From an uncultured Nitrospiraceae bacterium (GTDB lineage: Bacteria > Nitrospirota > UBA9217): a DNA stretch of 58,026 nt. The stretch is from the NCBI GenBank assembly GCA_964364055.1, contig CAYILT010000002.1, positions 1 through 58,026 of the forward strand, in the 5' to 3' direction. Every line of letters begins with the position of its first letter. Position 1 is the stretch's first letter. The translations under genes and the position numbers were made by a program. A model generated the notes under the pieces. It was not told where the DNA came from. It worked only from the letters and a program-made list of their open reading frames with translations, and did not search any database. Below are positions 14,583-55,461 of this stretch, in pieces.

Positions 14583-14763
14583 GGGAATGTGAGGTCTCCT
14601 GGCTTAGGACGGTTCGACATTGCTCACCGCCGTGAGCACATCGAACGGCTTCCTACTCGCCTGCCTTCCCATCCTTCAAAGGACAGTGGCCAGCCCGGCT
14701 TTCGTTTCCATCACAGTTGCGTGGCAGCGGGGGACTTGCACCCCCTTCCGCTTCATCATTCCC
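14583..14763 (-). promoter_or_regulatory. Cobalamin riboswitch (leader of btuB-tonB)
   Basis: Minus-strand RNA contains GGUGCAAGUCCCCCGCUGCC, GCCACUG, GGGAAGG and the B12 box AGCCAGGAGACCUC. P1 closes as GGAAUG.../...CAUUCC. Confidence 0.85.
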
Positions 14764-29350: not shown

Positions 29351-30742
29351 TCATTTGCCCTTCTCGCCTCTCACGATGAATACGGGATTCAGGGCGTTCA
29401 TCAGTTTTTTCCCCGCTACCGGCTTCGAACGCGAAACGGACACCTCGCATACGTCGGTCGTGAAACCACGTTGTTCGAGTGCGGCAACGCCGTCCCGGAG
29501 GGTTTCGAGCGTCGCGGCGTTGATCACGATGATCCCTGAACGCATCATCCCGCTCGCCAGTTCCACGATTGCCGCCAGCCTGCCGCCGCTGCCGCCGATA
29601 AAAACACGGTCCGGCGCGGGCAGGCCGGTCAGTTCCTCGGGCGCCGTCGCTTTCACGACCTCGATGTTCTTCACGCTGAACCGCCGCATGTTGTTGTTGA
29701 TGTGATTGACCTGATCTTCGTCCTTTTCCACGGCAAAGATCCGAAGACCGGGGAAAAGCCTCGCTGCCTCGATCGAGACCGAGCCGGAGCCCGCGCCGAT
29801 GTCCCAGAGCACGCCGCTCTGAGGAAGCTTCAACTTATGCAGCGTCACCGCCCGCACCTCATCTTTCGTGATCAGCCCGCGCGCATGGGACAGTTCTTCC
29901 TCTTTCAAGCCGAAACAGACCTCTCCTGGTCCCTGGACCCTGGCCCCTGGCCCCTGCCGTTGAATGATCACCACGTTCGGCTCGGCAAAGGTCATGCCTG
30001 CGGCCTCGTTGATCGTTCCCGTCCATACGCGCTCGTCAGGATATCCGAGTCGTTCGCAAACATGCATTATCATGCCGCCGGCAATCCCCCCTTGCCCCCC
30101 TTTGTCAAAGGGGGGTTGGGGGGATTTTACGATGCAGTTCAATAACTCTCCGGCAATTGCCGTCGGATTATTCACCCTGTCCGTGAGAATCGCAAGTTTG
30201 CGGTATTTTTCGAGCAGCCGGGGAATATCACCCGCTTCATAGGGCAGCTTTCGCCGCCTCGCGATATCCGGTCCGCCGTGCACGCTGATGCAGAACGCGT
30301 CGTCCCAGGGTTCGTTGATCCGGGCAAAGGCCTCCTGCATGCTCGACAGGTCGGGAATGATCTCGATCCGCTCCTTCCCGAACTCCTCGATCATGCGCCT
30401 TCCGATGCCGAAGAAGAAGGGATCGCCTGAGGCCAGGAGAACGAGAGAAGGCAGCTCGGATTGCGGAGCCTTCGACCCGAGCTCAGGCCGAGGGTTGCGG
30501 ATTGCGGATTGGGAAAACCATTCTTTGATATACGCTACAGTCTCCGGCACTTTATTGATGACCGTGATGCGTTCCTTGACCGCCTCGTATTCCTCATACC
30601 GCTTGAAGACATCAAAAAGCCGTGACGAAGCGAGGACCACGTCCGCCTTACGGACGATCTCCCGCGCCCGCCCTCCGAGCGGCCGGTATCCGATCCCGAC
30701 AAGAGTGAGTTTATTCGCTTTCGGCAATGAGCTCTCCTTCAT
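29351..30742 (-). CDS. cbiET: CbiE-CbiT fusion (cobalt-precorrin-7 C5-methyltransferase / cobalt-precorrin-6B C15-methyltransferase, decarboxylating)
   Basis: Start moved to MKESSLPKANKLTLVGIGYRP. C-terminal half has ITKDEVRAVTLHKLKLPQSGVLWDIGAGSGSVSIEAA (CbiT). Confidence 0.85.
   Translation of the reverse strand: MKESSLPKANKLTLVGIGYRPLGGRAREIVRKADVVLASSRLFDVFKRYEEYEAVKERITVINKVPETVAYIKEWFSQSAIRNPRPELGSKAPQSELPSLVLLASGDPFFFGIGRRMIEEFGKERIEIIPDLSSMQEAFARINEPWDDAFCISVHGGPDIARRRKLPYEAGDIPRLLEKYRKLAILTDRVNNPTAIAGELLNCIVKSPQPPFDKGGQGGIAGGMIMHVCERLGYPDERVWTGTINEAAGMTFAEPNVVIIQRQGPGARVQGPGEVCFGLKEEELSHARGLITKDEVRAVTLHKLKLPQSGVLWDIGAGSGSVSIEAARLFPGLRIFAVEKDEDQVNHINNNMRRFSVKNIEVVKATAPEELTGLPAPDRVFIGGSGGRLAAIVELASGMMRSGIIVINAATLETLRDGVAALEQRGFTTDVCEVSVSRSKPVAGKKLMNALNPVFIVRGEKGK
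29923..29958. repeat. Heptanucleotide tract (CCCTGG[N]-type) inside cbiET
   Basis: CTCCTGGTCCCTGGACCCTGGCCCCTGGCCCCTGCC. Encodes QGPGARVQGPGE. Confidence 0.8.
30083..30126. repeat. Nested palindromic element inside cbiET
   Basis: AATCCCCCC-TTG-CCCCCCTTTG-T-CAAAGGGGGG-TTG-GGGGGATT. Encodes KSPQPPFDKGGQGGIA. Confidence 0.75.
30455..30513. repeat. Composite 60-bp element (heptamer arms plus GAGCTC-centred core), inverted orientation, inside cbiET
   Basis: CGGATTGCGGAGCCTTCGACCCGAGCTCAGGCCGAGGGTTGCGGATTGCGGATT. Encodes IRNPRPELGSKAPQSEL. Confidence 0.9.
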
Positions 30743-31940
30743 AGGACACAAGATGGACCGAGACGGCGGTCCCCTTCGCCTCCCGTTCACAGTAGCTCCG
30801 CGCCGCGGAACAGACCTTTTTCAATGCGGAGTCCGGAGCGGGGAACGTCGAGCGGATGAAATCAAATATCTCCCGCGACGTATTGTACGATGCGTCCCCC
30901 GGCAAACCGATCCCGAGCCCGATCAGGAAATCCCTCGCGGCCTCCGCCTCCAGCGCGCCGTGGCGCACATGGGTCTGGGGCGTGGCCATGGCGATCTTGA
31001 TCATTTTTGCCCACTGGGCGCAGAGGTGCACCTTGCTGAACCCGTGTTTCGCAGCGTCGCGCAGCGAGAATTCCGTGTAGTCGCCCATCATGGCATAGGC
31101 CTCCACGGGCAGGCCGTACTTCCGCTGATGGGCTTTCTCCGACGTCCTGCCGGTGGATATCACGGCCTCGGTCAGACCGAGCGCCTTCGCCACATCGAAA
31201 GACGCCGTAATGGTCGCCGTCCAGGCCGCCTCGGAAAGCGGCCTCACGATTCCGGTGGTGCCGAGGATCGATATGCCGCCGACGATGCCGAGCCGATGAT
31301 TCAGGGTCTTTTTCGCCAGCTCTTCTCCGGCAGGAACGGAGATGGTGACTTCCAATTGCGGATTGCGGATTGCGGATTGCGGATTTGCTAAACCGAACTC
31401 AGAAACCGCTTCGCGCACCGCATCAGTAATCATCCTCCTCGGCACAGGATTAATCGCCGGTTCTCCCACGGGGATCGCGAGGCCCGGTTTGGTCACGGTC
31501 CCAACACCCTTTCCGCCACGGATTATTATTTCGGATTGCGAATTTAAATCCGCAATCCGCAATCCGAAATCCGCAATCAGAGAGGCTTCCGCCCTTATCT
31601 CCGCACCGTTCGTGATGTCCGGATCATCGCCCGCGTCCTTGATCACGGACGCCGTTGAAATCAGTTCGGAGTGGTGAGTTCGGAGTTCGGAGTGATGAAC
31701 TTTGAACTGCACCCTGCTGCCGTCCGGAAATGGTATTTCTACACTTTGCAGGAAGACGGCCCCCTCACCTCGTTCCTCTCCCTCGCTGGGGAGAGGATGA
31801 AAAACTCCCTCGCCCCTTGCGGGAGAGGGCTGGGGTGAGGGGGAAATCCGCAATAGAAGGCTCGTTGCCGCCTTTGCAGCCGCTGCCGCGCACGCGCCGG
31901 TGGTGTATCCGGACCGGAGATTCTTACTTTTCGATTCCAC
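30711..31940 (-). CDS. cbiD: Cobalt-precorrin-5B C1-methyltransferase
   Basis: LRSGYTTGACAAAAAKAA N-terminus. Several repeat-encoded inserts. Confidence 0.88.
   Translation of the reverse strand: MESKSKNLRSGYTTGACAAAAAKAATSLLLRISPSPQPSPARGEGVFHPLPSEGEERGEGAVFLQSVEIPFPDGSRVQFKVHHSELRTHHSELISTASVIKDAGDDPDITNGAEIRAEASLIADFGLRIADLNSQSEIIIRGGKGVGTVTKPGLAIPVGEPAINPVPRRMITDAVREAVSEFGLANPQSAIRNPQLEVTISVPAGEELAKKTLNHRLGIVGGISILGTTGIVRPLSEAAWTATITASFDVAKALGLTEAVISTGRTSEKAHQRKYGLPVEAYAMMGDYTEFSLRDAAKHGFSKVHLCAQWAKMIKIAMATPQTHVRHGALEAEAARDFLIGLGIGLPGDASYNTSREIFDFIRSTFPAPDSALKKVCSAARSYCEREAKGTAVSVHLVSYEGELIAESE
31355..31388. repeat. Heptanucleotide tract (ATTGCGG)x4+ inside cbiD
   Basis: Encodes NPQSAIRNPQ. 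Confidence 0.85.
31531..31578. repeat. Inverted heptamer tracts forming a palindrome inside cbiD
   Basis: CGGATTGCGAATTT|AAATCCGCAATCCG (one mismatch), then AATCCGAAATCCGCAATC. Encodes IADFGLRIADLNSQSE. Confidence 0.8.
31664..31698. repeat. Heptamer-type tract (GTTCGGA) inside cbiD
   Basis: Encodes HHSELRTHHSEL. Confidence 0.7.
31761..31842. repeat. Compound G/C-rich palindromic element inside cbiD
   Basis: Outer arms CCCCTCACC / GGTGAGGGG enclose two hairpins, CCTCTCCC..GGGGAGAGG and CTCCCTCGCC..GCGGGAGAG. Encodes SPSPQPSPARGEGVFHPLPSEGEERGEG. Confidence 0.75.
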
Positions 31941-35221: not shown

Positions 35222-35247
35222 TTTTTCTCCTTCTATCGAGGTTTTTT

Positions 35248-35398
35248 GGAATGAACGGTATTCCGGCTCAGGGCTCAAACCTACTTGCCCGTCTTCCCAT
35301 CATGATGGCACTCATGACAGTGACTTCGTATGGGCTTTCGTTCCCTTTACGGCTGCGGGACAGCATGGGGATTTCACCCATTTCCTCTCTTTCATTCC
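35248..35398 (-). promoter_or_regulatory. Cobalt-transport leader cobalamin riboswitch (cbiMNQO leader)
   Basis: Minus-strand RNA has GGUGAAAUCCCCAUGCUGUCCCGCAGCCGUAAAGGGAACG, GUCACUG, GGGAAGA and the B12 box AGCCGGAAUACCGU. Confidence 0.8.
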
Positions 35399-35515
35399 TT
35401 TCATGAACGTTCTCACATCAAAGACCTGATGATACATGATTACTATTGTGTTTTTTTATCCGCCACCTCCTTTTCCCTCCCCTGATAATGTGTCGTGTAT
35501 TCATTCGGCATCCCG

Positions 35516-36286: not shown

Positions 36287-36311
36287 AGTATTCTCCTTTA
36301 TTCGAGGTTTT

Positions 36312-36450
36312 GGGAATGAGAGGTCTTCCGGCTCAGGGCTGCCTACTCACCCGCCTTCCCATCATGGGACTCCATGACAGTGGCTTTTGCATCGGGTTTT
36401 CGTTCCCTTCACGGCTGCGTGACAGCAGGGGAGTTGCACCCCTTTCCGCT
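36312..36450 (-). promoter_or_regulatory. Cobalamin riboswitch (leader of the outer-membrane barrel gene)
   Basis: GGUGCAACUCCCCUGCUGUCACGCAGCCGUGAAGGGAACG, GCCACUG, GGGAAGG and the B12 box AGCCGGAAGACCUC. Confidence 0.8.
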
Positions 36451-36512
36451 TCATCCTTCCCGGTTTTTATTACACAACAACCTTATGCCGCAAAATCCAC
36501 TGTTGCACTATA

Positions 36513-39530: not shown

Positions 39531-40937
39531 TTATCTACCTTCGCTTATAAAGGCTGCGAAATTGGCCGCGATACGCCGGTTGCTGCCGAAGTGCACATGG
39601 ATGTAGCTCGCAAGGGTGCCTTTATATTTGAACCCCTCATCTGACAGATGGTTGCCCGACGCGTTCGTTACGGAATAGACATTCCCCTGCCCCCCGACCC
39701 CTGACCCCTGACCCCTGCCTTCCAGTATTTCCGAATAATGGAACTCATGGCCCCGGTACTTCTCACCCTTGCTCCCCAGGATACAGTGTTCGTTCAAGAC
39801 GATTTCCCGGTAGCCCAGGCGCGGTTTCCTCATCATCCGCGTTTCGAAGGGGAACACTCCTGCCATGCCAAAGAGCGTGTTGTCAAAGTCGCGAATGCCT
39901 CTCGAAAGATACATCAATCCGCCGCATTCCGCGTACAACGGTTTGCCTGCATCGACCCATGCGCGCACGGACTCACGCATGGAGCTATTGCCCGATAGCG
40001 CGGCTGCATGAAGCTCGGGATACCCGCCTCCGATATAAACACCGTCCGCTGCGCCGGGGATGGCCGGATCGACAAGAGGACTGAACCGGATGATCTCGGC
40101 GCCTGCATCGCGAAGCAGGTCCAGGTTGTCCTCATAGTAGAAACTGAATGCCCGGTCATAGGCTACGGCAATGCGAATTGCGGATTTCGGATTGCGGATT
40201 GCGGATTGCTTTTTTGCCTGCCTGTCCCATCCCCCGGTATCCAGCGTGGCCGATTCATAGACCATATCGATGTCGATGTGCTTCAGGATCGTGTCAGCAA
40301 GCCTATCTATATTCGCCTTGGTGAGGGGGTCCTCCTCTGCGATCATAAGCCCGAGATGCCGGTGCGGGATTTCAAGGTCCATCTCTCGCGGGAGATACCC
40401 CAGAACAGGCACCGTACGAACGCTGTCTCTCAGGCGTGCAAAATGGCTCTCCGAAGCAACGCGATTGAAAATGACGCCGGCGAACTTCAATCCGCAATCC
40501 GCAACCCTCGGCCTGAGCTCGGGTCGAAGGCTCCGCACTCCGAACTCGGTAAACCCCTTCACCATTGCCCCTGCGCTCTCTGCCATGCCGTAGGCATCGA
40601 CAACAAGCACAACAGGCGCCTGCAGAAGCACCGCCAGCGACGCCGTGCTTCGGTCGCCATCGTACATCCCCATGACGCCTTCGATCACCGCAAGATCGGC
40701 ATCTGCGGCATGCCTCCTGAAGCACCGGCGCACATAGTCCTGGCCGCACATCCACAGGTCCAGATTTCTGGACGGCCTGTCCACGACAAGCCGATGCAGG
40801 CCAGCATCGATGAAGTCCGGTCCTGCTTTGAAGGGCTGGACCACAAGCCCCTTCTTCCGCAGGGCCGCCATGATGCCGAGTGACACCGTTGTCTTGCCGC
40901 ACCCGCTGTGAGTCCCCGCGATGACTATCCCGCGCAT
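39531..40937 (-). CDS. cbiA: Cobyrinic acid a,c-diamide synthase
   Basis: MRGIVIAGTHSGCGKTTVSLGIMAAL; GATase part YAECGGLMYL. Three repeat-encoded inserts. Confidence 0.88.
   Translation of the reverse strand: MRGIVIAGTHSGCGKTTVSLGIMAALRKKGLVVQPFKAGPDFIDAGLHRLVVDRPSRNLDLWMCGQDYVRRCFRRHAADADLAVIEGVMGMYDGDRSTASLAVLLQAPVVLVVDAYGMAESAGAMVKGFTEFGVRSLRPELRPRVADCGLKFAGVIFNRVASESHFARLRDSVRTVPVLGYLPREMDLEIPHRHLGLMIAEEDPLTKANIDRLADTILKHIDIDMVYESATLDTGGWDRQAKKQSAIRNPKSAIRIAVAYDRAFSFYYEDNLDLLRDAGAEIIRFSPLVDPAIPGAADGVYIGGGYPELHAAALSGNSSMRESVRAWVDAGKPLYAECGGLMYLSRGIRDFDNTLFGMAGVFPFETRMMRKPRLGYREIVLNEHCILGSKGEKYRGHEFHYSEILEGRGQGSGVGGQGNVYSVTNASGNHLSDEGFKYKGTLASYIHVHFGSNRRIAANFAAFISEGR
39684..39719. repeat. 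Heptanucleotide tract (GACCCCT-type) inside cbiA
   Basis: Encodes GRGQGSGVGGQG. Confidence 0.8.
40171..40208. repeat. Heptanucleotide tract (ATTGCGG-type) inside cbiA
   Basis: Encodes KQSAIRNPKSAIRIA. Confidence 0.85.
40488..40549. repeat. Composite 60-bp element inside cbiA
   Basis: The core GCAACCCTCGGCCTGAGCTCGGGTCGAAGGCTCCGCACTCC is identical to both cobQ copies. Encodes RSLRPELRPRVADCGL. Confidence 0.9.
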
Positions 40938-41983: not shown

Positions 41984-42978
41984 GACATTCCCCGCGCAGC
42001 AATTGCCGCCCCGGCCAGGGCAGCCGCGATTATTGCGGAGACCTTCACCAGCGCCATGGCCTCGTCCGACGCTGGAAGATAATCTTCCCGGCAGGGATCG
42101 CCGATTACGGGTTTGTTGATCAACACGCCGCTGTACACGTTGGGACCGCCGAGCGTCACGCCGATCGCTCCGGCCATGGACGCCTCGGGTACGCCGCTGT
42201 TCGGACTGGGGTGTTTCCTGCCGTCGCGCGCCATGATCGCAAGCGACCTGCGCAAAGCCGCAACGCCCTTCGCCGCGTCCTTCACGCACGCGCTCAGGAA
42301 TGCGGCCACCGCGATGATCAGGCCCGTGAGCCGCGCAGGCAGGTAGTTCGCGGCATCATCGACCCGCGCCGCGGCCCAGCCGAAATAGCGATACCGGTCG
42401 CTCTTGTACCCCACCATGGAGTCGAGCGTGTTGATGGCTTTGTAGGCCATGGCAAGAGGAAGCCCCCCGAGGGCAAGATAGAAGAGCGGCGCGACAATCC
42501 CGTCGGAAAGGTTCTCGGCCAGCGTCTCGATCGTTGCCCTGAGCACGCCCTGCTCCGAAAGTTCGCCGGTGTCTCGGCCCACGATCATGCTCACGTGCTT
42601 CCGCGCCGACTCCAGACTTCCCTCTCTGATCGAAGATATCACGAGACCGGCCGACCGAAGGAGACCATGCGTGGCGATCGTTGTTGCCGTGAGCACGACC
42701 AGCGCCGCGGTCCCGGCAAGGACGGACACCTGCTCCGAAAGACGGTTCAGCAACAGCACGATGACGCCGGTAAGGAAATAGACCGGCGCCACGATCACAA
42801 TAACCAGCACGAAGCCGGCAGTCCGCTCAGCCGCGGGAGAAGCGACTGCGCTCCGGAGTACCCTCTCCATCGTGCTGATGGCGCTGCCGATGAACCTGAC
42901 CGGATGGGGCAGCCAGCGGGGATCTCCGATCAGGAGATCGAGCACGAACGCCAGCAGCAGGACCGTCGCGCTGATCAT
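41980..42978 (-). CDS. cbiB: Adenosylcobinamide-phosphate synthase
   Basis: LLIGDPRWLPHPVRFIGSAIS; polytopic membrane protein. Confidence 0.88.
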   Translation of the reverse strand: MISATVLLLAFVLDLLIGDPRWLPHPVRFIGSAISTMERVLRSAVASPAAERTAGFVLVIVIVAPVYFLTGVIVLLLNRLSEQVSVLAGTAALVVLTATTIATHGLLRSAGLVISSIREGSLESARKHVSMIVGRDTGELSEQGVLRATIETLAENLSDGIVAPLFYLALGGLPLAMAYKAINTLDSMVGYKSDRYRYFGWAAARVDDAANYLPARLTGLIIAVAAFLSACVKDAAKGVAALRRSLAIMARDGRKHPSPNSGVPEASMAGAIGVTLGGPNVYSGVLINKPVIGDPCREDYLPASDEAMALVKVSAIIAAALAGAAIAARGMS

Positions 42979-44642
42979 AGTTTCAGCATCTCCCGGACAA
43001 AATCCATATTCACATGCTCCCGTACGACCCTGGCCAGCCGGTCCAGGGCCTGCTCCTGGAACTCGCTGTACCGTAGCCCGCTCTTGCCGGGAGGAATCCC
43101 CTTCTTTTTTCTGACGTGATCGATGATGCCCCGTCGGAACAGATCGTTGTCGAAGATCCCGTGGAGATAGGTGCCCCAGCAGTTTTTGTTCATCGAGCCG
43201 TCAAGAACAAATGCGGAGTGCGGGTAGACATGACCCTCACCCCTGCCCCTCTCCCCTGGAGGGAGAGGGAAAAAGGGAGAGGGGGCTTTTTCAACGCGGA
43301 ATGCGGAATCAACAGCCGATCTTCTCACTCTGAACAAACCAATATCTCCGGTGCTTGCACCCATGTGAATTTCGTATCCTTTTAAAATATCCTCGCTCTT
43401 CCACTCCACACTCCGCAACCCTCGGCCTGAGCTCGGGTCGAAGGCTCCGCACTCCGCACTTCCCACGATCTCCGCCTCAACGCGGCAGGTCTTCTTTTCA
43501 CTCCCGAAAAGGGTGTCGATATTCAGGAGCCCGATGCCTTCGACGCTCCGATGAACGCTCTCGGTTCCCTGCGGATCGTCGATCCGTCTGCCGAGCATCT
43601 GATAACCGCCGCAGATGCCGATGATCTCCGTTCCCCGGTCATAGGCCCTCCGGATGCAATCAACGAGCCCCTTCTCCTTCAGGAGGAGCAGATCGGTGAC
43701 CGTGTTCTTCGATCCCGGCAGGATGACCAGGTCCGCGCTCTCGATCTCCGAAGGACTGTCTGAATACACAACCTCCGTATCCGGTTCGAGCGCAAGCGGA
43801 TCAAAATCAGTAAAGTTCGAAATATACTTCAGCCTCACGATGACGATTTTTACAGTCTTTCCCTCCGCACTCCGCACTCCGCAACCCTCGGCCTGAGCTC
43901 GGGTCGAAGGCTCCGCACTCCGTGCAAGCGCCAAACCATCCTCCTCCGGAAGCCCCAGGTCCGTGATATAAGGCAGCACGCCGATCACGGGCCTGCCCGC
44001 TTTCTTCCTGATCATGTCGAGGCCGGGATCAAGGATGGTCTTGTCGCCCCGGAACTTGTTGATGATGAATGCCTTGATATGCCTGCTGTCCCGGCCGAGC
44101 AGTTTGACCGTGCCGTAGAGCGACGCGAACACGCCGCCCTTATCGATGTCCGCCACGAGCAGGACCGGCGCCTTCGCGTGCTTCGCCATGGCCATGTTCA
44201 CGATGTCCACATCCAGGAGGTTGATCTCCGCGGGGCTGCCCGCGCCTTCAAGAACGATCAGGTCATGCTGTTCCGCGAGCCGGGCGTAGGACGCGGTCAC
44301 CGCCTTCCATGCGTGGTCGCGGAACGCATAGTATTCCCGCGCCTTCATCGTGGCATGGACCTTGCCGTGGATAATGACCTGTGACCCGCCGTTGCCGGAC
44401 ACCTTGAGCAGCACGGGATTCATGTCGTTCAGAGAATCTACCCGGGCCGCCCGCGCCTGGAGCGCCTGCGCCCTGCCGATCTCTCCGCCCTCGGCGGTGA
44501 TGGAGGAGTTCAGCGCCATGTTCTGCGCCTTGAACGGCGCGACGCTGATCCCCTGATCGCTGAAAATACGACAAAGCGCCGCGACGACCAGGCTCTTGCC
44601 CGCGCCGGACCCCGTGCCCTGTATCATTAACGCCTTAGCCAC
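42975..44642 (-). CDS. cobQ: Cobyric acid synthase
   Basis: Probable GTG start giving (M)AKALMIQGTGSGAGKS. GATase part ICGGYQML. Three repeat-encoded inserts. Confidence 0.88.
   Translation of the reverse strand: MAKALMIQGTGSGAGKSLVVAALCRIFSDQGISVAPFKAQNMALNSSITAEGGEIGRAQALQARAARVDSLNDMNPVLLKVSGNGGSQVIIHGKVHATMKAREYYAFRDHAWKAVTASYARLAEQHDLIVLEGAGSPAEINLLDVDIVNMAMAKHAKAPVLLVADIDKGGVFASLYGTVKLLGRDSRHIKAFIINKFRGDKTILDPGLDMIRKKAGRPVIGVLPYITDLGLPEEDGLALARSAEPSTRAQAEGCGVRSAEGKTVKIVIVRLKYISNFTDFDPLALEPDTEVVYSDSPSEIESADLVILPGSKNTVTDLLLLKEKGLVDCIRRAYDRGTEIIGICGGYQMLGRRIDDPQGTESVHRSVEGIGLLNIDTLFGSEKKTCRVEAEIVGSAECGAFDPSSGRGLRSVEWKSEDILKGYEIHMGASTGDIGLFRVRRSAVDSAFRVEKAPSPFFPLPPGERGRGEGHVYPHSAFVLDGSMNKNCWGTYLHGIFDNDLFRRGIIDHVRKKKGIPPGKSGLRYSEFQEQALDRLARVVREHVNMDFVREMLKL
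43234..43285. repeat. G/C-rich palindromic element inside cobQ
   Basis: CCCTCACCCCTGCCCCTCTCCCCTGGAGGGAGAGGG...GGGAGAGGGGG. Encodes PSPFFPLPPGERGRGEGH. Confidence 0.7.
43402..43460. repeat. Composite 60-bp element inside cobQ (copy 2)
   Basis: Same 41-nt core. Encodes ECGAFDPSSGRGLRSVEW. Confidence 0.9.
43863..43922. repeat. Composite 60-bp element inside cobQ (copy 1)
   Basis: Same 41-nt core. Encodes SAEPSTRAQAEGCGVRSAE. Confidence 0.9.
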
Positions 44643-44730
44643 TCGACCCCCTGAGCGGAGACAACGGCACGGCAATCCCGTCCCCCGTGAATCGTCCGCA
44701 TGGTTTCGCACAGTTGATGCTGATTCACCA

Positions 44731-45831
44731 TCAGGCATCCTTCTCCGATACCCCTGCCTCGCCGAAGGTGGCCATCTCGCGGTATATCTTGACTCCCGCC
44801 TCGATCATCTGCATTGCCAGCGCCGCGCCGGTACCCTCGCCGAGCCGGAGCGAGAAATCGAGGATCGGCACCAGCCCCATCTTCCCGAGCATGGCCCGCT
44901 GCCCCTGTTCGACCGAATAATGGGCCGAGAACATATAATCCACCGTCGCAGGTTCGATCTCATAAGCGATCATGGCCCCGGCTGTGGAAATGAACCCGTC
45001 CACGATCACGGGGATCCGCTCCGCCGCCGCGCCCAGGATGAGGCCCGCAATGCCGCCGATCTCCGCTCCGCCCACCTTGGCGAGCACGTCAATAGGGTCC
45101 TTCGCATCAGGCCGGTTCAGCGCGATGCTCTCCTCAATGACCGCGACCTTCCGCTGGAGGCCTGCGTCGTCGATCCCCGTGCCCCTGCCCGTCACGTTAT
45201 TCACCGGCGCGCCGGTCAGCACCGATGCGATGGCGCTCGACGGCGTGGTGTTGCCGATGCCCATGTCGCCGGTGCCGAAAATGCGGTAGCCCTTCTGTGC
45301 GTATTCCCGGGCGAGGTCGATCCCGACTTGGAGGCACTGCTCCGCCTCGGCCCGCGTCATGGCGGGACCAATGCGCATGTTCTTCGTGCCGCGCACGACC
45401 TTTCGCGACATCAACCCGGGCGTCTCGCCGAAATCGTGATCCACACCGATGTCCACCACCACGACCTCGGCCCCGGCGTGGCGCGCCAGCACATTGATCC
45501 CCGCGCCGCCGCGCAGGAAGTTGAACACCATCTGCGGCGTGACCTCCTTGGGGAACGCTGAGACGCCGTCCGCGGTGACGCCGTGGTCTCCCACAAACGT
45601 GAAAACGACCTTTTTGTCCAGCGTCGGCATCGTGTCCCCGGTGATCGCCACGATCCTGCGCGCAAACTCCTCGAGCCTGCCGAGGCTTCCCAGCGGCTTG
45701 GTCAGGTTGTCCAGCCGCTTCTGCGCAATCTCGTAGAGCGATGATTGCACGGGTTGTATCCTGCCGCGAATGTCGCTGAACGCCTGCGCCCCGGAAGCGG
45801 TTTCTTTACCAGCTGTTCTTTCCTTATTCAT
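44731..45831 (-). CDS. cobT: Nicotinate-nucleotide:dimethylbenzimidazole phosphoribosyltransferase
   Basis: [18 protein letters not shown]...GDMGIGNTT. Confidence 0.9.
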
Positions 45832-46057: not shown

Positions 46058-47368
46058 TTATGCCTTTCCGCTCAATTGCAGGTCTTCGGAAAAAAGCTTT
46101 GCAGCTCCTTTCGCGGCGCAGAAGCTCCCGCACATGGTGCAGGAATCTTCATGCTCGGGCATGCGGCTTGCGCGGACCGCCTTCGCCTCTTCCGGATAGA
46201 GCGCGAGCTTGAACTGCTTTTCCCAATTGAGGTCCCGGCGCGCTTTGCTGATCTCCATGTCGCGCTGTCTTCCCTTCTCCGGATATTTGTTCATGTCGCC
46301 GATATAGGCGGCGATCTTGGCCGCCTGCACGCCCTGTCGCACATCGTCCTCATTCGGCAGAGCGAGATGTTCCGCAGGCGTGATATAGCATATCAGGTCA
46401 GCGCCGAAGCGGCTCGACTGCGCCGCGCCGATGGCCGCGGTGATATGGTCGAACCCCGGCGCAACGTCCGTGGTTATGGGGCCGAGCATGTAGTAGGGTG
46501 CGCCGCCACTCATCCGTTTCTGGAGCTGGATGTTTCCCTTGATCTCGTCCAGGGGCACGTGTCCCGGCCCCTCGACCAGCATCTGGCATCCCATTTCCCT
46601 GCCGATCTCGGCCAGTTCGCAATTGATTATCAGCTCCTGGATCTGCGCCCGGTCCGAGGAATCGTGGATCGCCCCTGCCCTGAGGCCGTTGCCGAGCGAC
46701 AGGACCACATCGTATTTTTTCAGGATCGAGACGACGCGGTCGAATTTCTCGTATAAAGGATTCTCCCGATTATTGGCAAGCATCCAGGCGACCATGCTCA
46801 CCCCGCCCTTGCTCACCAGGCCGCCGTAGCGGTATCCCTGCTTTCTTAAGCGTTCAATGGTATAGAGGTTGATGCCGCAGTGAATTGCCATGAAGGCGAT
46901 TCCGTCTACGCACTGCTGTTCGATCAGGTCGAAAAGCATTTCTTCATCGAGCTTGTTCGGGTCACCGTACTTCCGGCCGGCCTCACAAAAGGCCTGGTAC
47001 AGGGGGACGTTCCCGACGGGAAGTTCCACGGCCGCGATCACTTCGCGCCGCACCCGGTCCAGGTCGCCGCCCACCGAGAGTTCCATGAGTGTGTCAGCGC
47101 CCGCGGCTTCGGCAATTTTCGCTTTCCTTACCTCCGCGGCGTAGTCGACAATGTCCGACGACGTGCCGATCGAAGCATTCACCTTCGTTCGCAGCCCTTT
47201 GCCGACGCCGACCGCTTTCGGCTGCCTAATCGTGTTTCCGGGAATAACGATTTTCCCCTCTGCTACCATGGTTCGTACATACTCAGTTGATACATCCTCC
47301 GCAGCAGCGACTGTCTCCATCTGCGGTGTAACAAACCCTTTTCGGGCATGCTCTATTTGTGTTGTCAT
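46058..47368 (-). CDS. bzaF: ThiC-family radical SAM enzyme, probable 5-hydroxybenzimidazole synthase
   Basis: 436-aa ThiC homologue with a C-terminal CTMCGSFC. Preceded by cobalamin (not TPP) riboswitches and followed by cobT. Confidence 0.7.
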   Translation of the reverse strand: MTTQIEHARKGFVTPQMETVAAAEDVSTEYVRTMVAEGKIVIPGNTIRQPKAVGVGKGLRTKVNASIGTSSDIVDYAAEVRKAKIAEAAGADTLMELSVGGDLDRVRREVIAAVELPVGNVPLYQAFCEAGRKYGDPNKLDEEMLFDLIEQQCVDGIAFMAIHCGINLYTIERLRKQGYRYGGLVSKGGVSMVAWMLANNRENPLYEKFDRVVSILKKYDVVLSLGNGLRAGAIHDSSDRAQIQELIINCELAEIGREMGCQMLVEGPGHVPLDEIKGNIQLQKRMSGGAPYYMLGPITTDVAPGFDHITAAIGAAQSSRFGADLICYITPAEHLALPNEDDVRQGVQAAKIAAYIGDMNKYPEKGRQRDMEISKARRDLNWEKQFKLALYPEEAKAVRASRMPEHEDSCTMCGSFCAAKGAAKLFSEDLQLSGKA

Positions 47369-47483
47369 AGATAAGCTCCTTATGATTGTGCAATATTGTA
47401 ACCGCTACGCCTTCAAAACTGCGACCTATGACAAAACCGATATTTTTTTCTTTACCATGTTTTTTCTCCTTCCGCGTGCATAT

Positions 47484-47626
47484 GGGAATAAGACGTCTCC
47501 TGGCTTAGGACAACCTACTCGCCGGCCTTCCCACCCCGATCAGGGCAGTGGCACTCGATCAGCTTTCGTTTCCATCACAGTTGCGCGACAGCAGGGGAGT
47601 CGCACCCCTTTCCGCTTTCTTATTCC
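47484..47626 (-). promoter_or_regulatory. Cobalamin riboswitch, proximal member of a tandem pair (bzaF leader)
   Basis: GGAAUAAGAAAGCGGAAAGGGGUGCGACUCCCCUGCUGUCGCGCAACUGU, GCCACUG, GGGAAGG and the B12 box AGCCAGGAGACGUC. Confidence 0.8.
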
Positions 47627-47640
47627 ACCGTACTATAAAA

Positions 47641-47680
47641 TAAATAAATCCCCGGTCTTCTACTCAAGACCGAGGATTAA
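47641..47680 (-). terminator. Intrinsic terminator (expression platform of the distal riboswitch)
   Basis: AAUCCUCGGUCUU-GAGUAG-AAGACCGGGGAUU: a 13-bp stem followed by UAUUUAUUUUAU. Confidence 0.65.
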
Positions 47681-47691
47681 AGAAACGCCTT

Positions 47692-47893
47692 AACCCACAC
47701 ATGATCTTAACGCCGAAGAATGTGCGAAATTGTTCAAGCAGGTCTTCTGGCTCTCCCCCCCCTTTACCGGCCTTCCCAGCCAGAACACCGGCCAGTGGCG
47801 CAATTTGTAGTAAAGAGTTCGACCCCATAGTGCAGGGTCAGGATTACAGCGGCGGGTCCGCTCCCGATTTTAACGGGATTCCCTTAGCTTGAA
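47692..47893 (-). promoter_or_regulatory. Cobalamin riboswitch, distal member of the tandem pair
   Basis: AAGGGAAUCCCGUUAAAAUCGGGAGCGGACCCGCCGCUGUAA, GCCACUGG, GGGAAGG and the B12 box AGCCAGAAGACCUGC. Its 3' part is near-identical to the btuF riboswitch. Confidence 0.8.
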
Positions 47894-47980
47894 TGTGAAA
47901 CTGTTATATATGCTTTTTTTATACCACGTGCGTCATGCAAAGTCAATTCACTTTCTTTGGGGGCCTCATAGGTATAATTA

Positions 47981-49486
47981 TCAGGATTTATAAAATATTC
48001 CATCTATCTCGTTTTCCGTTTCTCGAACCAGAGAGGCTATTCGCTCCTTGTCAAATCGCCCTCCTCCTTCTAGAGCTGTCAGGCCATCCTCAAAGACCTT
48101 TACGATTAAATGGTTCACCTTTACATATCTTTCCAGCATACCGGGTGGCTCAATATCCTTACCGCTCCAGGTTCCGTCCATTCTCCCAAAGAGGATATTG
48201 GTAATCCGCCTCATGATATCGGCAAGGTCGGCGACTTCAGGTTTTTTAAAATAGGCTGTCCCTTCATAGGAAGAAGAACGTTGAAGTTCAAGACGTTTTT
48301 CTTTTTTGAGATTATGATATGCCTGTGTTCCTTCCAGAACAATCTGGTGGTGGTAAAGCACGTTTGCGGTAACAGGGAGATTTTTCAGCAGAGCATTCCT
48401 CTTCAGGAATTCAAAATTAATGCGCACATCCCCCAGCGAGGAATCCGGCTCGAACATGATGAACCCGACATTCGGCTCCACGCCATGTTTTCGGAGGATA
48501 GTGAGCGCCCTCTCATTCTGTGCCACCGTGGTCATTTTATTCATCCGTTTGAGCGACTCGTCTTTCCCGCTTTCTAACCCGATGAGAATGTGGCGGAGAC
48601 CGGCATCCACCAGAACGCCAATGGTTCCCTCATGGATATCATTGACCCTTCCTTCGATGCCGAACCGGATGCTTCTGGGCTTCAGAAGTGATGCAATTCG
48701 AAGGGCCCTGTCCTGGCCTTCCTGACCGGGACCGAAAAAGTTGGGGTCAGTAAAATAGAAATCCCTCAAACCTTTTTTCGAAATGATTGCGTCAATTTCC
48801 TCGGCGATATTCTCAGGGCTCCTCCCTCGCCAGGGGCTCCCGGGCCCATAAAAAGAATTAACGTAACAGAAGGTGCATCTCCCGTAGCATCCGCGGCTTC
48901 CCAGCAGATTCACCTCGGGCAGCCGGTACATCGCCTCAGTGCGGACAGGAAAAGGAAGGCAATCGAGGTTCTCGACGGGTTTCTGTTTTATATACTTGAT
49001 GCCGCCAGCTCCGTCTCTTCGCGCAAAACCGGGGACGCAAGGCGTGTCATGCCCGAATGACGCGGACCCGGCAAGGTCTGCAAACGGCCCTTCAGGCTCT
49101 CCGATAATGACCGAATTGATGGCGTGGCAGCTTGTCAGGATATCTTCAAAAGAAATCGTGGCATAAAAACCGTATGCAATTATAAAAGAGGCTTGCTCTT
49201 TTCTCTTCACCCCTTCGAGAAAATCGAAGAGAGCGAGATCCTTCCGCCAGTGGTAGACGATATGCACTCCGAGAATATCCGGCTTCACGGCATTCACCCT
49301 GTCCGCGAGCTCACTATAGGAAAGTCTGTCCAGATAACCTTCCACGATCTCGACCTCATGTCCTTTTCCTTTCAGCATTCCGGCCGCATAACCGCTCAGA
49401 AGACATGAGGAGAGGGGGGTGTTCGCAATATCATTGCACCGTTCAGGAGTAACGCTGCGCGGATGTTCCAGTAGCAGTATCTTCAT
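47981..49486 (-). CDS. bzaE: B12-binding radical SAM methyltransferase (BzaE-like by position)
   Basis: Start moved to MKILLLEH. N-terminal cobalamin-binding domain and CYGRCTFC radical SAM motif. ATGA overlap with the upstream gene. Confidence 0.6.
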   Translation of the reverse strand: MKILLLEHPRSVTPERCNDIANTPLSSCLLSGYAAGMLKGKGHEVEIVEGYLDRLSYSELADRVNAVKPDILGVHIVYHWRKDLALFDFLEGVKRKEQASFIIAYGFYATISFEDILTSCHAINSVIIGEPEGPFADLAGSASFGHDTPCVPGFARRDGAGGIKYIKQKPVENLDCLPFPVRTEAMYRLPEVNLLGSRGCYGRCTFCYVNSFYGPGSPWRGRSPENIAEEIDAIISKKGLRDFYFTDPNFFGPGQEGQDRALRIASLLKPRSIRFGIEGRVNDIHEGTIGVLVDAGLRHILIGLESGKDESLKRMNKMTTVAQNERALTILRKHGVEPNVGFIMFEPDSSLGDVRINFEFLKRNALLKNLPVTANVLYHHQIVLEGTQAYHNLKKEKRLELQRSSSYEGTAYFKKPEVADLADIMRRITNILFGRMDGTWSGKDIEPPGMLERYVKVNHLIVKVFEDGLTALEGGGRFDKERIASLVRETENEIDGIFYKS

Positions 49487-50823
49487 GTGGCTGCCCCGAC
49501 TTCCTGCCACATGAACACGTTTTTGGAGAGATGCAGAGCTTCCAGGCGGTACCTGAAGGCATCGAACGGTCTCGGGTTATAGTAGGTCGGATAAAGAAGA
49601 TCGGTATCCGGCCCTATGATTCCACCCGCTCTGGCCAGCGCTTCCATGCGTGTTCCCGGCAAAATTCTTATATTATTCAACACGACGGTACCGAGATTTT
49701 TCTTCCTGCTATGCTGATCATAGATCTTCTCTAGAAAGCGAAATCCCTTATCGCAGGTTTTTTCCGTTTCACCCGGAGCATTCACCATGAAGTGGTAAAC
49801 GCTCATGACGTCGGTTCTTGCGGCGAGTTCGGCGGCTTTCAGAATATCGCTTTCATTGAGCCTTTTGTCGAGCACATCAAGGGCTTCCTGGCACAGACCG
49901 TCAGGAGAAAATGAGAAACACTCACATCCCGCTTTTTCAAAGAGGGCTGCGTTTTTTTCGTTAAAATGATCTTCCCTCATAAAGCCATCCCATTTGAGCT
50001 TCAGTTTTCTCCGGAGGATTTCATGACAGATATTTTCAAGGTGGTCACTGGGGAAATTCACGATCGGATCGGTAAAGTGAAAACGTTCAATGCCGTATTC
50101 CTTATGCAAGGACTCCAGCTCATCCACGGCGTCACGCGGCGGCCGGCAGCGTAGCTGCCTCCCCTGTAAGGCGGGATAAACGCAGTACGCGCAATGAAAA
50201 GGACAGCCGCGCTTTGTTTCGATCCCCAGGGAAGGCACATAATTATTTATCTTTAAGTAGCGGGTAGGGTCCAGCAGGTTCCTGCTCGGTCGCGCGTAAT
50301 GAACCATATCAACGCATTCAGCGGGAGCGTCGATCGTCACTCCATTCCTCGTGCGCCTGCACAGCCCTTTTATGAGAGGCGGGTTTTCAAGAGAAGCGAT
50401 GAGTAGCGGCAAGGATGTTTCCGCTTCTCCTATAATGCCGTAATGAAGCTCAGGCGCCTCGCGCATCAACCGTTCGGGAAAAAGAGAAAAAGCCGTGCCG
50501 CCGGCGATAATCCATGATTTCGGCATGACAGCGGCAACAAGTCTGGCGGTAACCAGGAACGGGGGAATGAGTGAACTGGTCTTGTTTGCAAGGGGATCTA
50601 TGTTCCGCAATGATAACCCCACGACATCCGGTCTGAAGATAAGAAGCCTGTTCTTCACGGCGCCGAAGGGATCCGGCTCGATATTCATATCGATGATTTC
50701 GACCTCATAGCCGCGGTCCTGAAGGGAACCGGCCAGGATGACGATCCCAATGGGGTAGACTCTTTCTTGCGATACCCCCTCTACGGAAAGTGTCTGTATG
50801 AATAGGACCCGCATGCTGTTCAC
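49483..50823 (-). CDS. bzaD: B12-binding radical SAM methyltransferase (BzaD-like by position)
   Basis: N-terminal B12-binding domain, CPFHCAYC motif. 4-bp overlaps on both sides. Confidence 0.6.
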   Translation of the reverse strand: MNSMRVLFIQTLSVEGVSQERVYPIGIVILAGSLQDRGYEVEIIDMNIEPDPFGAVKNRLLIFRPDVVGLSLRNIDPLANKTSSLIPPFLVTARLVAAVMPKSWIIAGGTAFSLFPERLMREAPELHYGIIGEAETSLPLLIASLENPPLIKGLCRRTRNGVTIDAPAECVDMVHYARPSRNLLDPTRYLKINNYVPSLGIETKRGCPFHCAYCVYPALQGRQLRCRPPRDAVDELESLHKEYGIERFHFTDPIVNFPSDHLENICHEILRRKLKLKWDGFMREDHFNEKNAALFEKAGCECFSFSPDGLCQEALDVLDKRLNESDILKAAELAARTDVMSVYHFMVNAPGETEKTCDKGFRFLEKIYDQHSRKKNLGTVVLNNIRILPGTRMEALARAGGIIGPDTDLLYPTYYNPRPFDAFRYRLEALHLSKNVFMWQEVGAAT

Positions 50824-52373
50824 TCCAGCAGTATCAAGGCAAAGTATTTTACAAAATCATCTTTATTGTTCAGGGTTCTCAAAGTTGCTCCTGCATGCCG
50901 AGCGGTCTCAAAAACGTCGATGCCCGCACCTTCCATGGAAGGCCTGGAATTCACGGTGTTCGTGCATGGTCCGTTTTTTGCGCAGGGCTCGCAGAGGGAA
51001 CACGGACCCGCCCAGTAAGAAAAGGCTTTATGAAAACCCGCCTTGAAGGCCGCGCGCTCAGCCTGCAAGACTCGTAACTGAAAAGTCCTCGTCGGAGGTT
51101 CCCCCTCCAGGAGCAATGCCTGCTTGAAGTCTTTCACCGTCTCCCTGGTCTTCTTCGGTGAAGGGCTGTTGGGAGGACAGTGGGGGTTGCCGTATCTGTC
51201 ACATCCAAACCGGCATCGGAGCTCCGTCCAGTCCGCGATTTGGATGTCCTCTGTCTTTATACGATACACTTTTTTAAAACCCTGAGCATGAATTTTTGAA
51301 ACCAGAAGGTCTGTCGTATTAAGATGCAGAGACCCGATGGCGGCCTTATCCTTTGAGGCGAAGAGAACAGCCGTATCGGTCTTCAACCGGACCAGGTCCG
51401 TACAGGAAAGCCCCAGATGAAGCAGCTGTTCCTGAACAGACTTCCCTGAAAAAACTCCGCCGTTGAACGTGTTGATGAACATGTTCAGATCGCTCAGCGC
51501 CGCCTTTCCCGGGCAGTGCTCCAAAAAAAAATCATGGATCAGCAGAAGGCCGTGGTTCCCGAGACAATCAGCGGCGGAGAGAAGGATATGCGGCAGCTCT
51601 TTCTCGGAATAGGCATGAAGAATGTTCGAGAGAATAACAAGGTCAAAACCTTGTTTTTTAACCGGCCAGGGCTCCAGGATGTTTGCCGGGCAGTACTGCA
51701 GCCTGCTGTCGAGCCCCCGATCCGACAACAACTCCCGGGTTTGCTCAAGGACTTCCGGCAGGTCGATGACGGTCGCATGCGTGAGAGGAAAATGTTCAAG
51801 AAAGGCCGCGGCAATGGCGCCCGAGCCGGCGCCGACATCGAGTATCTCTCCCTTCTCTGAACGAGCCCCGAAGAATGCGACAATTTCACGCGCCTTTATT
51901 TTTGCAATGCCATCCATGGCGCGGATATATTTTTGTATACGTTTAACTCTCTCCGAAGAGCTGTCATGGCTGTTGTAATCCACCCTTCCGCCTTCCTTAA
52001 GGCAGTCTTTCAGACCGTTCCAGCCCGAACACAGGTATTTCCGCCAGAGAATGGAATCACCCTGATACTGATCCTTGCCACGCACCAGATAGTTGCTCGA
52101 TAGTTTTGTGTTGAAATACCGCTGGCCCTCGTTCGTTACCAGCCCCATTGCGCCAAGAGCCCGCAGAAACCGTTCGATCCCATGGAGCTTTGCATCAAGC
52201 GCTCTGGATAGTTCTTCAATGGTTGCCCCCTCCGTCCCGACAAGGGAAAAGAGGTCCATTTCAACGGCCGTAAAGAGAACCTCCGAGAACCAGTACCCGG
52301 TAGCGAGATCTTCGAGATACTGTGGTCCTGTATCCTGTGCATCGTAGCTCTGAAATGGCAAGGTCTTGTTCAT
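50820..52373 (-). CDS. bzaC: SAM-dependent O-methyltransferase (BzaC-like) fused to a Cys-rich DUF2284-like domain
   Basis: Dimerisation/winged-helix N-terminus, SAM motif ILDVGAGSGAIAAAF. C-terminal about 170 aa has CRFGCDRYGNPHCPP...CSLCEPC. Confidence 0.6.
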   Translation of the reverse strand: MNKTLPFQSYDAQDTGPQYLEDLATGYWFSEVLFTAVEMDLFSLVGTEGATIEELSRALDAKLHGIERFLRALGAMGLVTNEGQRYFNTKLSSNYLVRGKDQYQGDSILWRKYLCSGWNGLKDCLKEGGRVDYNSHDSSSERVKRIQKYIRAMDGIAKIKAREIVAFFGARSEKGEILDVGAGSGAIAAAFLEHFPLTHATVIDLPEVLEQTRELLSDRGLDSRLQYCPANILEPWPVKKQGFDLVILSNILHAYSEKELPHILLSAADCLGNHGLLLIHDFFLEHCPGKAALSDLNMFINTFNGGVFSGKSVQEQLLHLGLSCTDLVRLKTDTAVLFASKDKAAIGSLHLNTTDLLVSKIHAQGFKKVYRIKTEDIQIADWTELRCRFGCDRYGNPHCPPNSPSPKKTRETVKDFKQALLLEGEPPTRTFQLRVLQAERAAFKAGFHKAFSYWAGPCSLCEPCAKNGPCTNTVNSRPSMEGAGIDVFETARHAGATLRTLNNKDDFVKYFALILLE

Positions 52374-55142: not shown

Positions 55143-55350
55143 TAACCCACACATGATCTTAACGCCGAAGACTGTGCGAGAAACATCCGGGTAGGTTTTC
55201 TGGCTCTCCCTCATCTGCCGTCCTTCCCATCCCGATGGTTCGGGACAGTGGATACTGGCTGGCAGATGCGTTGACCCTGCTTCCTGCAGGGCCGGGATCA
55301 CAGCGGCGGGTCCGCTCCCGATTTACACGGGATTCCCTTCGCCTGGATGT
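55143..55350 (-). promoter_or_regulatory. Cobalamin riboswitch (btuFCD leader)
   Basis: AAGGGAAUCCCGUGUAAAUCGGGAGCGGACCCGCCGCUGUGA, CCACUGU, GGGAAGG and the B12 box AGCCAGAAAACCUAC. Confidence 0.85.
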
Positions 55351-55461
55351 GTTCGGTATGTAGTTGTGCCTGCTTTATACCACGCCGCGTAGATAAAGTC
55401 AAAAACTATCCGCACGGGATACTGTCGCCTCAATGGATTCGCCTGTCCCCTTGTCAGCAGT

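Follow-up and report, generated by a model that had tools for sequence, protein, structure and literature searches.

A 27-bp palindromic repeat in heptamer arrays of a Nitrospirota cobalamin locus, and its occurrence in other phyla

Very small mobile repeats have been described so far essentially only in the Nostocaceae. In Nostoc punctiforme and its relatives, Elhai et al. reportedly described in 2008 the small dispersed repeats (SDRs) SDR4, SDR5 and SDR6, dispersed units of 21-27 nt with hairpin potential that occur sporadically at orthologous sites; they are said to lie inside tandem heptamer repeats, at the centres of short palindromes, nested in one another and also within genes. SDR5 inserts within HIP1 (PMC4390886), and no SDRs were found outside the Nostocaceae (PMC5861425). 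We describe here a comparable unit, referred to below as the core, in a 58,026-nt stretch of DNA (contig CAYILT010000002.1, positions 1 to 58,026; the window) from an uncultured groundwater Nitrospiraceae bacterium of the class UBA9217, where it interrupts the gene cbiA. In its described behavior the core resembles the SDRs: it is a 27-bp non-coding dispersed unit with four exact copies in 58 kb and at least 115 loci elsewhere, its presence is sporadic (empty versus filled sites in cbiA, cobQ, and a cbiE/T-like gene), it sits in heptamer arrays or at the centres of short palindromes, and it nests. Unlike the SDRs, which were reported only from the Nostocaceae, the core has a groundwater Nitrospirota host, is also found in eight other phyla, and has a diverged relative in a unicellular cyanobacterium, so that very small mobile repeats are extended to the Nitrospirota and many phyla. 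By comparison with the described systems, the behavior of the core appears to match that of the Nostoc SDRs and of the Rickettsia elements considered below, and the parts that seem new are the cross-phylum spread and the base-exact insertion rule.

Positions 40488-40549 of the window read CAATCCGCAATCCGCA-ACCCTCGGCCTGAGCTCGGGTCGAAGG-CTCCGCACTCCGAACTCGG. The segment 40504-40530 represents a dispersed repeat that is very small, codes for nothing and is non-autonomous. This inserted unit of 27 bp consists of an A and a 26-bp imperfect palindrome with the halves CCCTCGGCCTGAG and CTCGGGTCGAAGG, and the base that follows it in cbiA, the C at 40531, is also near-invariant. The ends read ACCC... and ...AAGGC. 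The palindrome has 13 + 13 bases with three non-complementary positions, each a transition; on the written strand these are two G-U pairs and one C-A mismatch. Folded as RNA, the hairpin has a predicted energy of -14.7 kcal/mol on the + (written) strand and -11.4 kcal/mol on the other strand. Folded as DNA, neither strand was better than shuffled sequence.

A 32-nt form of the core has exactly four matches in the window (Table 1) and none in any of 100 dinucleotide-preserving shuffles. An earlier note on this DNA had taken the cbiA copy to be the third of one dispersed element, the other two being in cobQ. These three copies stand, and a fourth, which the note did not mention, lies in opposite orientation in the cbiE/T-like gene. 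The length of 41 nt given there for the core holds to within one base: no copy differs from another over a stretch of 40 contiguous bases (TCCGCA, the 27-bp unit, and CTCCGCA). The note was correct that the cbiA copy is read in the third frame (phase 2, with the cobQ copies in phases 1 and 0, so that all three frames of that orientation are used), that its minus-strand (gene) reading is EFGVRSLRPELRPRVADCGLKF, and that a left arm of AATCCGC type and a right arm of ACTCCGC/ACTCCGA type flank one core. In all four copies the heptamer unit that abuts the core on either side is a perfect [A/C]TCCGCA, and the outer units are degenerate. An origin as an artefact or adapter was ruled out by the in-frame copies in conserved genes and by recurrence in an independent Hainich groundwater assembly (Hain_H52, ENA ERZ1292616; L122), in which the cbiA insertion is present and one of 5407 bases differs. 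It is also contradicted by the many independent assemblies with the core, including one single-amplified genome (SAG) and one metagenome-assembled genome (MAG) deposited as a complete chromosome.

Rickettsia palindromic elements (RPEs), reportedly described by Ogata et al. in 2000, are about 100-150 bp long. They are palindromes inserted in frame into protein-coding genes at tolerated positions (PMC3733652). The core is like RPEs in behavior only, namely in-frame palindromic insertion at tolerated protein positions with an added peptide; RPEs are confined to Rickettsia and are not known to be associated with heptamer arrays, whereas the core unit, at 27 bp, is spread over nine phyla. The GC clusters of yeast mitochondria, very short GC-rich mobile palindromes with AT-rich targets and a short target duplication, can also sit in coding sequence. 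The core shares with them the short palindrome in coding sequence but is not organellar, belongs to a different sequence family and makes no duplication. Heptamer repeats are themselves familiar from heterocystous cyanobacteria as short tandemly repeated repetitive (STRR) sequences. In Geobacter metallireducens, arrays of 4-5 tandem heptanucleotides are dispersed within and between genes as possible regulator sites (PMC2700814), and one of their consensus sequences, MTYCTGA, matches the window arrays CTTCTGA and CTCCTGA. Unlike these Geobacter and STRR reports, which concern arrays alone with no inserted hairpin, the window has arrays that act as landing pads.

Filled and empty heptamer arrays

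We compared the window with Nitrospirota, including members of the class UBA9217, that have syntenic B12 clusters, with all sequences in the orientation of the element. For three of the four window sites, an orthologous array without the core was present in some relative. At the cbiA site, the relative L116 has an empty array, CAATCCGCAATCCGCA followed directly by ATCCGAAATCCGAA. At cobQ site 1, the relative L117 has four CTCCGCA-type units and the window has the same four units plus 27 bp. At the cbiE/T site, L117 has CAATCCGCAATCCGCA followed by ATCCGCAATCCG, and the window has CA-A[26]C-TCCGCAATCCG; this site is also filled in a sister MAG (L055). The difference between filled and empty is exactly 27 bp at each compared site, with an unchanged heptamer count and no target duplication. 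These clean sites define the insertion to the base: filled junctions read ...CA-A-[26]-C-TCCG... and empty ones ...CA-N-TCCG... (N = A or C), with A-[26]-C standing in for a single nucleotide in the middle of the array.

The core peptide is found in only one of the 120 closest CbiA homologues, the protein of the window itself, and an ancestral CbiA feature was ruled out by this alignment, in which the other 119 lack it. Even with five mismatches allowed, the core was not found in the syntenic B12 clusters of L116, L117, L120, and L121, all of which are rich in heptamer arrays (0.4-1.6 per kb). Since arrays without the core occur at orthologous sites with an equal number of units and a 27-bp difference, the arrays are pre-existing targets and not parts of the element. 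The earlier note had asked whether the arms belong to the element or are a preferred target, and the core-less arrays of L116 (cbiA) and L117 (cobQ and cbiE/T) largely settle this in favor of the target. The heptamer arrays are older and the core arrived later. Given the perfect unit on either side of it, however, the core may take a little of its flank along when it moves, or that flank may be converted together with it.

The window has approximately 21 arrays of 4-5 heptamers, 17 of them within genes, and the heptamer [A/C]TCCGCA builds arrays at more than 14 separate sites in the 58 kb. This narrow size suggests that the arrays are modules rather than open-ended products of slippage. Window arrays encode low-complexity stretches, for example SAIRNPQ, AECGVRS, and GQGSGVG. 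In cbiA, the core occupies the exact middle of an array of about four [A/C]TCCGCA units. The AATCCGC and ACTCCGC types are one position apart and interconvert at orthologous arrays; at cbiA site 2, which has five units, the window has (CAATCCG)n and L117 mostly CACTCCG, three of the five units having changed between A and C in concert.

The arrays serve as a general landing pad, for small inserts unrelated to the core, most of which are hairpins, are found in them too. The cbiA site 2 array of L116 contains an 18-nt mini-hairpin, TGGTCACAGACCACGATG, at the heptamer phase AA^TCCG, as for the core. In L117 an array is interrupted by an unrelated insert containing the hairpin TCCCGATTAGATCGGGA, and arrays of L120 and L121 are interrupted by inserts of approximately 33 nt. 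The cobQ of the window has another palindromic insert, of approximately 60 nt (CCCTCTCCCTCCAGGGGAGAGGG, peptide KAPSPFFPLPPGERGRGEG), in the middle of an ATTCCGC heptamer array. This insert is absent from the CobQ of both L116 and L117.

Occurrence beyond the window

We scanned one genome per species for the exact 24-mer core, and the figures given here refer to the matches listed. There are at least 115 loci in at least 56 assemblies, each of which is labelled as a MAG or SAG, and these represent at least nine phyla: Thermodesulfobacteriota/"delta proteobacterium," Bdellovibrionota, Nitrospirota, Methylomirabilota, Verrucomicrobiota, Chloroflexota, Planctomycetota, Pseudomonadota, and the candidate phyla radiation (CPR)/Patescibacteria. 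These comprise at least 82 distinct contexts, and the base after the core is C in 80 of 82, while the base before it is A (49) or C (29). The contexts are of two kinds. In the first, the core lies between the units of a heptamer array at a constant phase, the heptamer being CTTTCAA, CTGTGAA, CTTTAAA, CTGGTAG, CTGTCAA, or CAAACAA depending on the genome. In the second, it lies at the apex of related, diverged palindromes, forming nested composites that are themselves repeated.

In-frame, array-borne copies occur in DNA polymerase I (Pol I; Jacksonbacteria), in Glu/Gln-tRNA synthetase (GltX/GlnS; Dehalococcoidia), in aconitase, fumarase, and a GlmU-like gene of Nitrospirota, and in TsaD of both a gammaproteobacterium and a patescibacterium. 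CbiA and CobQ, and in other phyla Pol I, the tRNA synthetase and TsaD, are essential enzymes that bear such inserts in frame, which matters for gene calling, for protein alignments and for the low-complexity loops of MAG proteomes. The two TsaD copies (gammaproteobacterial L097, 2253-3452, minus strand; patescibacterial L114, 437-1507, plus strand) lie at a similar position of the Pfam profile (~104-108), with CTGGTAG versus CAAACAA as flanking heptamers and in opposite orientations. Overall, coding sequence is avoided: only 25% of 118 copies fall within a spanning open reading frame (ORF) of at least 600 nt, versus 75% of random positions. The window copies are all intragenic, and approximately 75% of the 118 copies elsewhere are outside such ORFs. 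Copy number is high in some MAGs, and positions at contig ends are frequent.

In Bdellovibrionota MAGs (L001, 6620-7700; L107; L112), a nested 53-nt composite of an outer hairpin and the core lies inside IS91-family (Y2_Tnp) genes, and in L001 it brings a stop codon into the transposase gene. An IS91-type transposase was rejected as a partner of the core, as the gene is interrupted by the element and not flanked by it. The lack of decayed copies was likewise dropped as a sign of constraint, since the loci were chosen by exact match.

A metagenome scan with a narrow pattern, the left arm plus core (a 33-mer), gave one match, a fragment of cobQ, which implies that the composite with TCCGCA arms is lineage-restricted. 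Phage records contained no match to the core. Rfam searches at the gathering threshold, with the window and 16 loci, returned only riboswitches, tRNAs, and sub-threshold noise and no family for the element, and in E-value mode neither the element nor the nested composite matched a family. A search of the available literature for the core sequence found no paper containing it. A near-invariant 24-26-mer that is shared by distant phyla and has no known vehicle or enzyme offers a concrete handle for finding a DNA insertion activity.

Possible routes of insertion

The features observed are a precise insertion, a fixed A-[26]-C junction, a target at the centre of a module, no target duplication and a sporadic presence. 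We consider, with moderate confidence, that these are the features of a small mobile repeat that is tolerated in frame and is placed by a putative enzyme; this implies no advantage for the host. The A-[26]-C module would be copied into the symmetry centre of a short (~30 bp) repeat module, which can be a hairpin loop or the central part of a heptamer array, by putative machinery that acts in trans and would choose its target by structure, not sequence. The jumps into unrelated targets are most likely such trans-acting, structure-directed insertions. Within one genome, homology-assisted copying from array to array probably contributes, aided by heptamer arms that are common to many arrays, which would explain why the adjoining unit is perfect and why the core keeps one orientation with respect to the heptamers. 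For a piece of mobile DNA, the core is unusually small and unusually widespread.

Several observations weigh against the enzyme-placed repeat. No mobilising enzyme or transposase is encoded in the 58-kb window, and no gene family recurs beside the copies in ~0.7 Mb of loci, where clustering of all neighboring ORFs of at least 120 aa gave only general families. No master resembling an insertion sequence (IS), with separated half-sites flanking an ORF, was found in ~0.8 Mb. No polymorphism within one population was seen, so there is no sign of current activity, and viral contigs had no exact match to the core. The invariance of the core across loci is partly built in, as the scan demanded an exact 24-mer, and a diverged relative does lie in an intergenic nest of related hairpins on plasmid pAQ6 of Picosynechococcus sp. 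PCC 7002 (L119, 65080-65180). The inner unit of this nest, CTCTCGGCCTGAGCTCGAGTCAAAGG, differs from the core at four positions and comes from a cyanobacterial, cultured strain; the plasmid scan otherwise gave only chance 19-mers in Streptomyces. Finally, the fixed orientation, the perfect flanking unit and the constant number of units fit homology-assisted copying at least as well as a dedicated enzyme.

That process acting by itself, which we regard as possible but not the probable explanation, would need no dedicated enzyme: gene conversion or replication template switching would copy the core with the heptamers as homology arms. This would account for the net gain of 27 bp with equal heptamer counts and no target duplication, and for the contrast, present in each of the four copies, between the perfect [A/C]TCCGCA unit next to the core and the degenerate units further out. 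It agrees with the orientation of the core being tied to that of the heptamers at five of five independent sites of the window lineage, and with three other Nitrospirota genomes in which the core is followed by CTTTGAA and has a TGAA-ending unit on its left although the surrounding arrays differ. The failure to find a transposase or a replication-strand bias points the same way. However, the core also lies between at least eight unrelated heptamer sequences and in hairpin apices, in nine phyla, where no flanking homology would guide it, and the A-[26]-C junction is constant across all contexts. The window arrays of CCCCTGA type, which lack the core, also speak against copying by homology alone, but are too few to test (4/15 versus 0/7).

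A more speculative possibility, to which we give limited credence, is that an undescribed insertion system, of which the 26-nt hairpin would be one module, has spread horizontally through at least nine phyla, including the CPR/Patescibacteria. Such a system would write short modules (18 to ~60 nt have been seen, with the core and arrays at ~27-33 nt), placing hairpins as well as heptamer arrays of 4-5 units in the middle of modules already present, genic or intergenic. It would leave no target duplication, and would be templated or structure-directed and distinct from known transposition. If this were true, the heptamer arrays of cyanobacteria (STRR), Geobacter and Nitrospirota, as well as the Nostoc SDRs, would be explained by one process.

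Miniature inverted-repeat transposable elements have terminal inverted repeats and a target-site duplication, are 70-300 bp long, and have a parent IS with matching ends. The core, at 27 bp, without target duplication and without separated half-sites around an ORF, is unlike them. Elements of the IS200/IS605 type show an orientation bias to replication, with a preference for the lagging-strand template. The core shows no such bias, with 62 versus 59 copies by the sign of the local GC skew. Repetitive extragenic palindromic (REP) sequences and their doublets (REPINs), moved by REP-associated tyrosine transposases (RAYTs), are imperfect palindromes of 20-40 nt, present in many copies, mostly extragenic and without target duplication (PMC3116915, PMC3733652). 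It is improbable, in our assessment, that the core is an element of the REP/RAYT or IS200/IS605 kind, a single-stranded DNA hairpin recognised and mobilised by an HUH (Y1) transposase whose gene lies at another place in the genome. Like REPs, it is a short imperfect palindrome, of which one strand folds better as RNA, with no target duplication and with many copies in some MAGs, often at contig ends; approximately 75% of its copies elsewhere are outside long ORFs, but all four window copies are intragenic, and intragenic REPs are known (PMC3733652). Unlike them, the core as read from its sequence has neither of the unpaired tags, GTAG and CGTC, that mark one end of a REP stem-loop (PMC3733652), and its copies are singlets and not inverted doublets. 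There is no RAYT (Y1 HUH) gene in the 58-kb window and no Y1 family recurs in the loci, where the sole HUH genes seen are the interrupted IS91-family genes of Bdellovibrionota. In addition, REP families are normally species- or genus-specific, and the core is not lineage-specific.

Very unlikely is a footprint model, in which a 7-bp target duplication followed by clean excision, repeated many times, would build the arrays and the empty arrays would be scars. The core is always in phase between whole units and near the centre of the array, the heptamer sequence varies between genomes, and core-less arrays far outnumber core-bearing ones, all as this model would have it. If the units were local target sequence, however, [A/C]TCCGCA arrays at so many separate sites would be unexpected. 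The narrow array size, which is also that of Geobacter (PMC2700814), the array-rich relatives wholly without the core, and nested copies without 7-bp direct repeats also count against the model. The least likely explanation is a module selected by the host, acting either in the mRNA as a hairpin (for pausing or stability) or in the B12 enzymes as a beneficial peptide of nine residues. In its favor, all four window copies are in B12 genes, and on the cbiA mRNA strand the fold of the core plus arms is more stable than that of shuffled sequence (z = -2.6). Against it, each of the four copies encodes a peptide of its own, and both orientations to transcription occur; the core is missing from 119 of the 120 closest CbiA homologues; in other phyla it is found in intergenic DNA and in genes of unrelated function; and it has no Rfam match.

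Host proteins and the surrounding locus

Five of the six frames of the 27-bp unit are free of stop codons (the sixth contains TGA), and the four window copies occupy four of these five. Given this and its length, the insertion could be accommodated as an added loop at any position where the protein permits one. In cbiA it adds nine codons, at one of three hypervariable regions of the CbiA homologue alignment; the EFGVRS encoded by the right arm is common to most close CbiA homologues. In an AlphaFold2 model of CbiA (mean predicted local distance difference test, pLDDT, of 82), the low-confidence residues 134-147, 238-251, and 408-415 are exactly the three repeat-coded segments, as cbiA carries two more heptamer arrays (Table 1), while a fourth low-confidence segment, 191-203, has no repeat within it. 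The array with the core falls within a variable part of CbiA, which the model shows as a loop of low confidence.

Table 1. Positions of the core copies, their host genes and other features of the window.
Feature	Position (strand)	32-nt match	Description
cbiA	39531..40937 (-)		Cobyrinate a,c-diamide synthase, 468 aa; Pfam CbiA + GATase_3
cbiA left arm	40488..40503 (+)		2.3 units of heptamer CAATCCG, AATCCGC type; also in core-less L116
cbiA copy, unit	40504..40530 (+)	40505-40536 (+)	Exact repeat, four times in window; phase 2, peptide LRPELRPRV
cbiA right arm	40531..40549 (+)		CTCCGCA CTCCGAA CTCGG, ACTCCGC type; gene strand encodes EFGVRS
cbiA site 2 array	40172-40209		Five heptamer units
cbiA further array	39684-39717		Heptamer array
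cobQ	42975-44738 (-)		Host of two copies
cobQ site 1 copy, unit	43418..43444 (+)	43419-43450 (+)	Phase 1, peptide AFDPSSGRG
cobQ site 2 copy, unit	43884..43910 (+)	43885-43916 (+)	Phase 0, peptide PSTRAQAEG
cobQ palindromic insert	43215-43290 (-)		~60-nt insert in ATTCCGC array
cbiE/T-like methylase gene	29351-30790 (-)		Host of fourth copy
cbiE/T copy, unit	30469..30495 (-)	30463-30494 (-)	Inverted relative to gene, peptide PRPELGSKA
Heptamer arrays (examples)	16195, 16656, 17043, 17568, 29925, 31355, 31547, 33284, 34422, 36832, 39684, 54536
Tandem cobalamin riboswitches	47477-47660 and 47720-47907 (-)		Upstream of ThiC-like gene
Other cobalamin riboswitches	14594-14749, 35238-35430, 36301-36502, 55173-55361
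ThiC-like (BzaF-like) gene	46058-47368
CobT, radical-SAM, B12-radical-SAM and methyltransferase genes	47981-52373		Adjoin ThiC-like gene

The longest ORF of cobQ begins 37 codons upstream of the start of its homologues, and translation probably begins at the Met of codon 38. The window as a whole is a cobalamin locus, and its 58 kb contain six cobalamin riboswitches. Two of these are in tandem upstream of the ThiC-like (BzaF-like) gene, which together with its neighbors looks like an anaerobic benzimidazole (bza-like) set.

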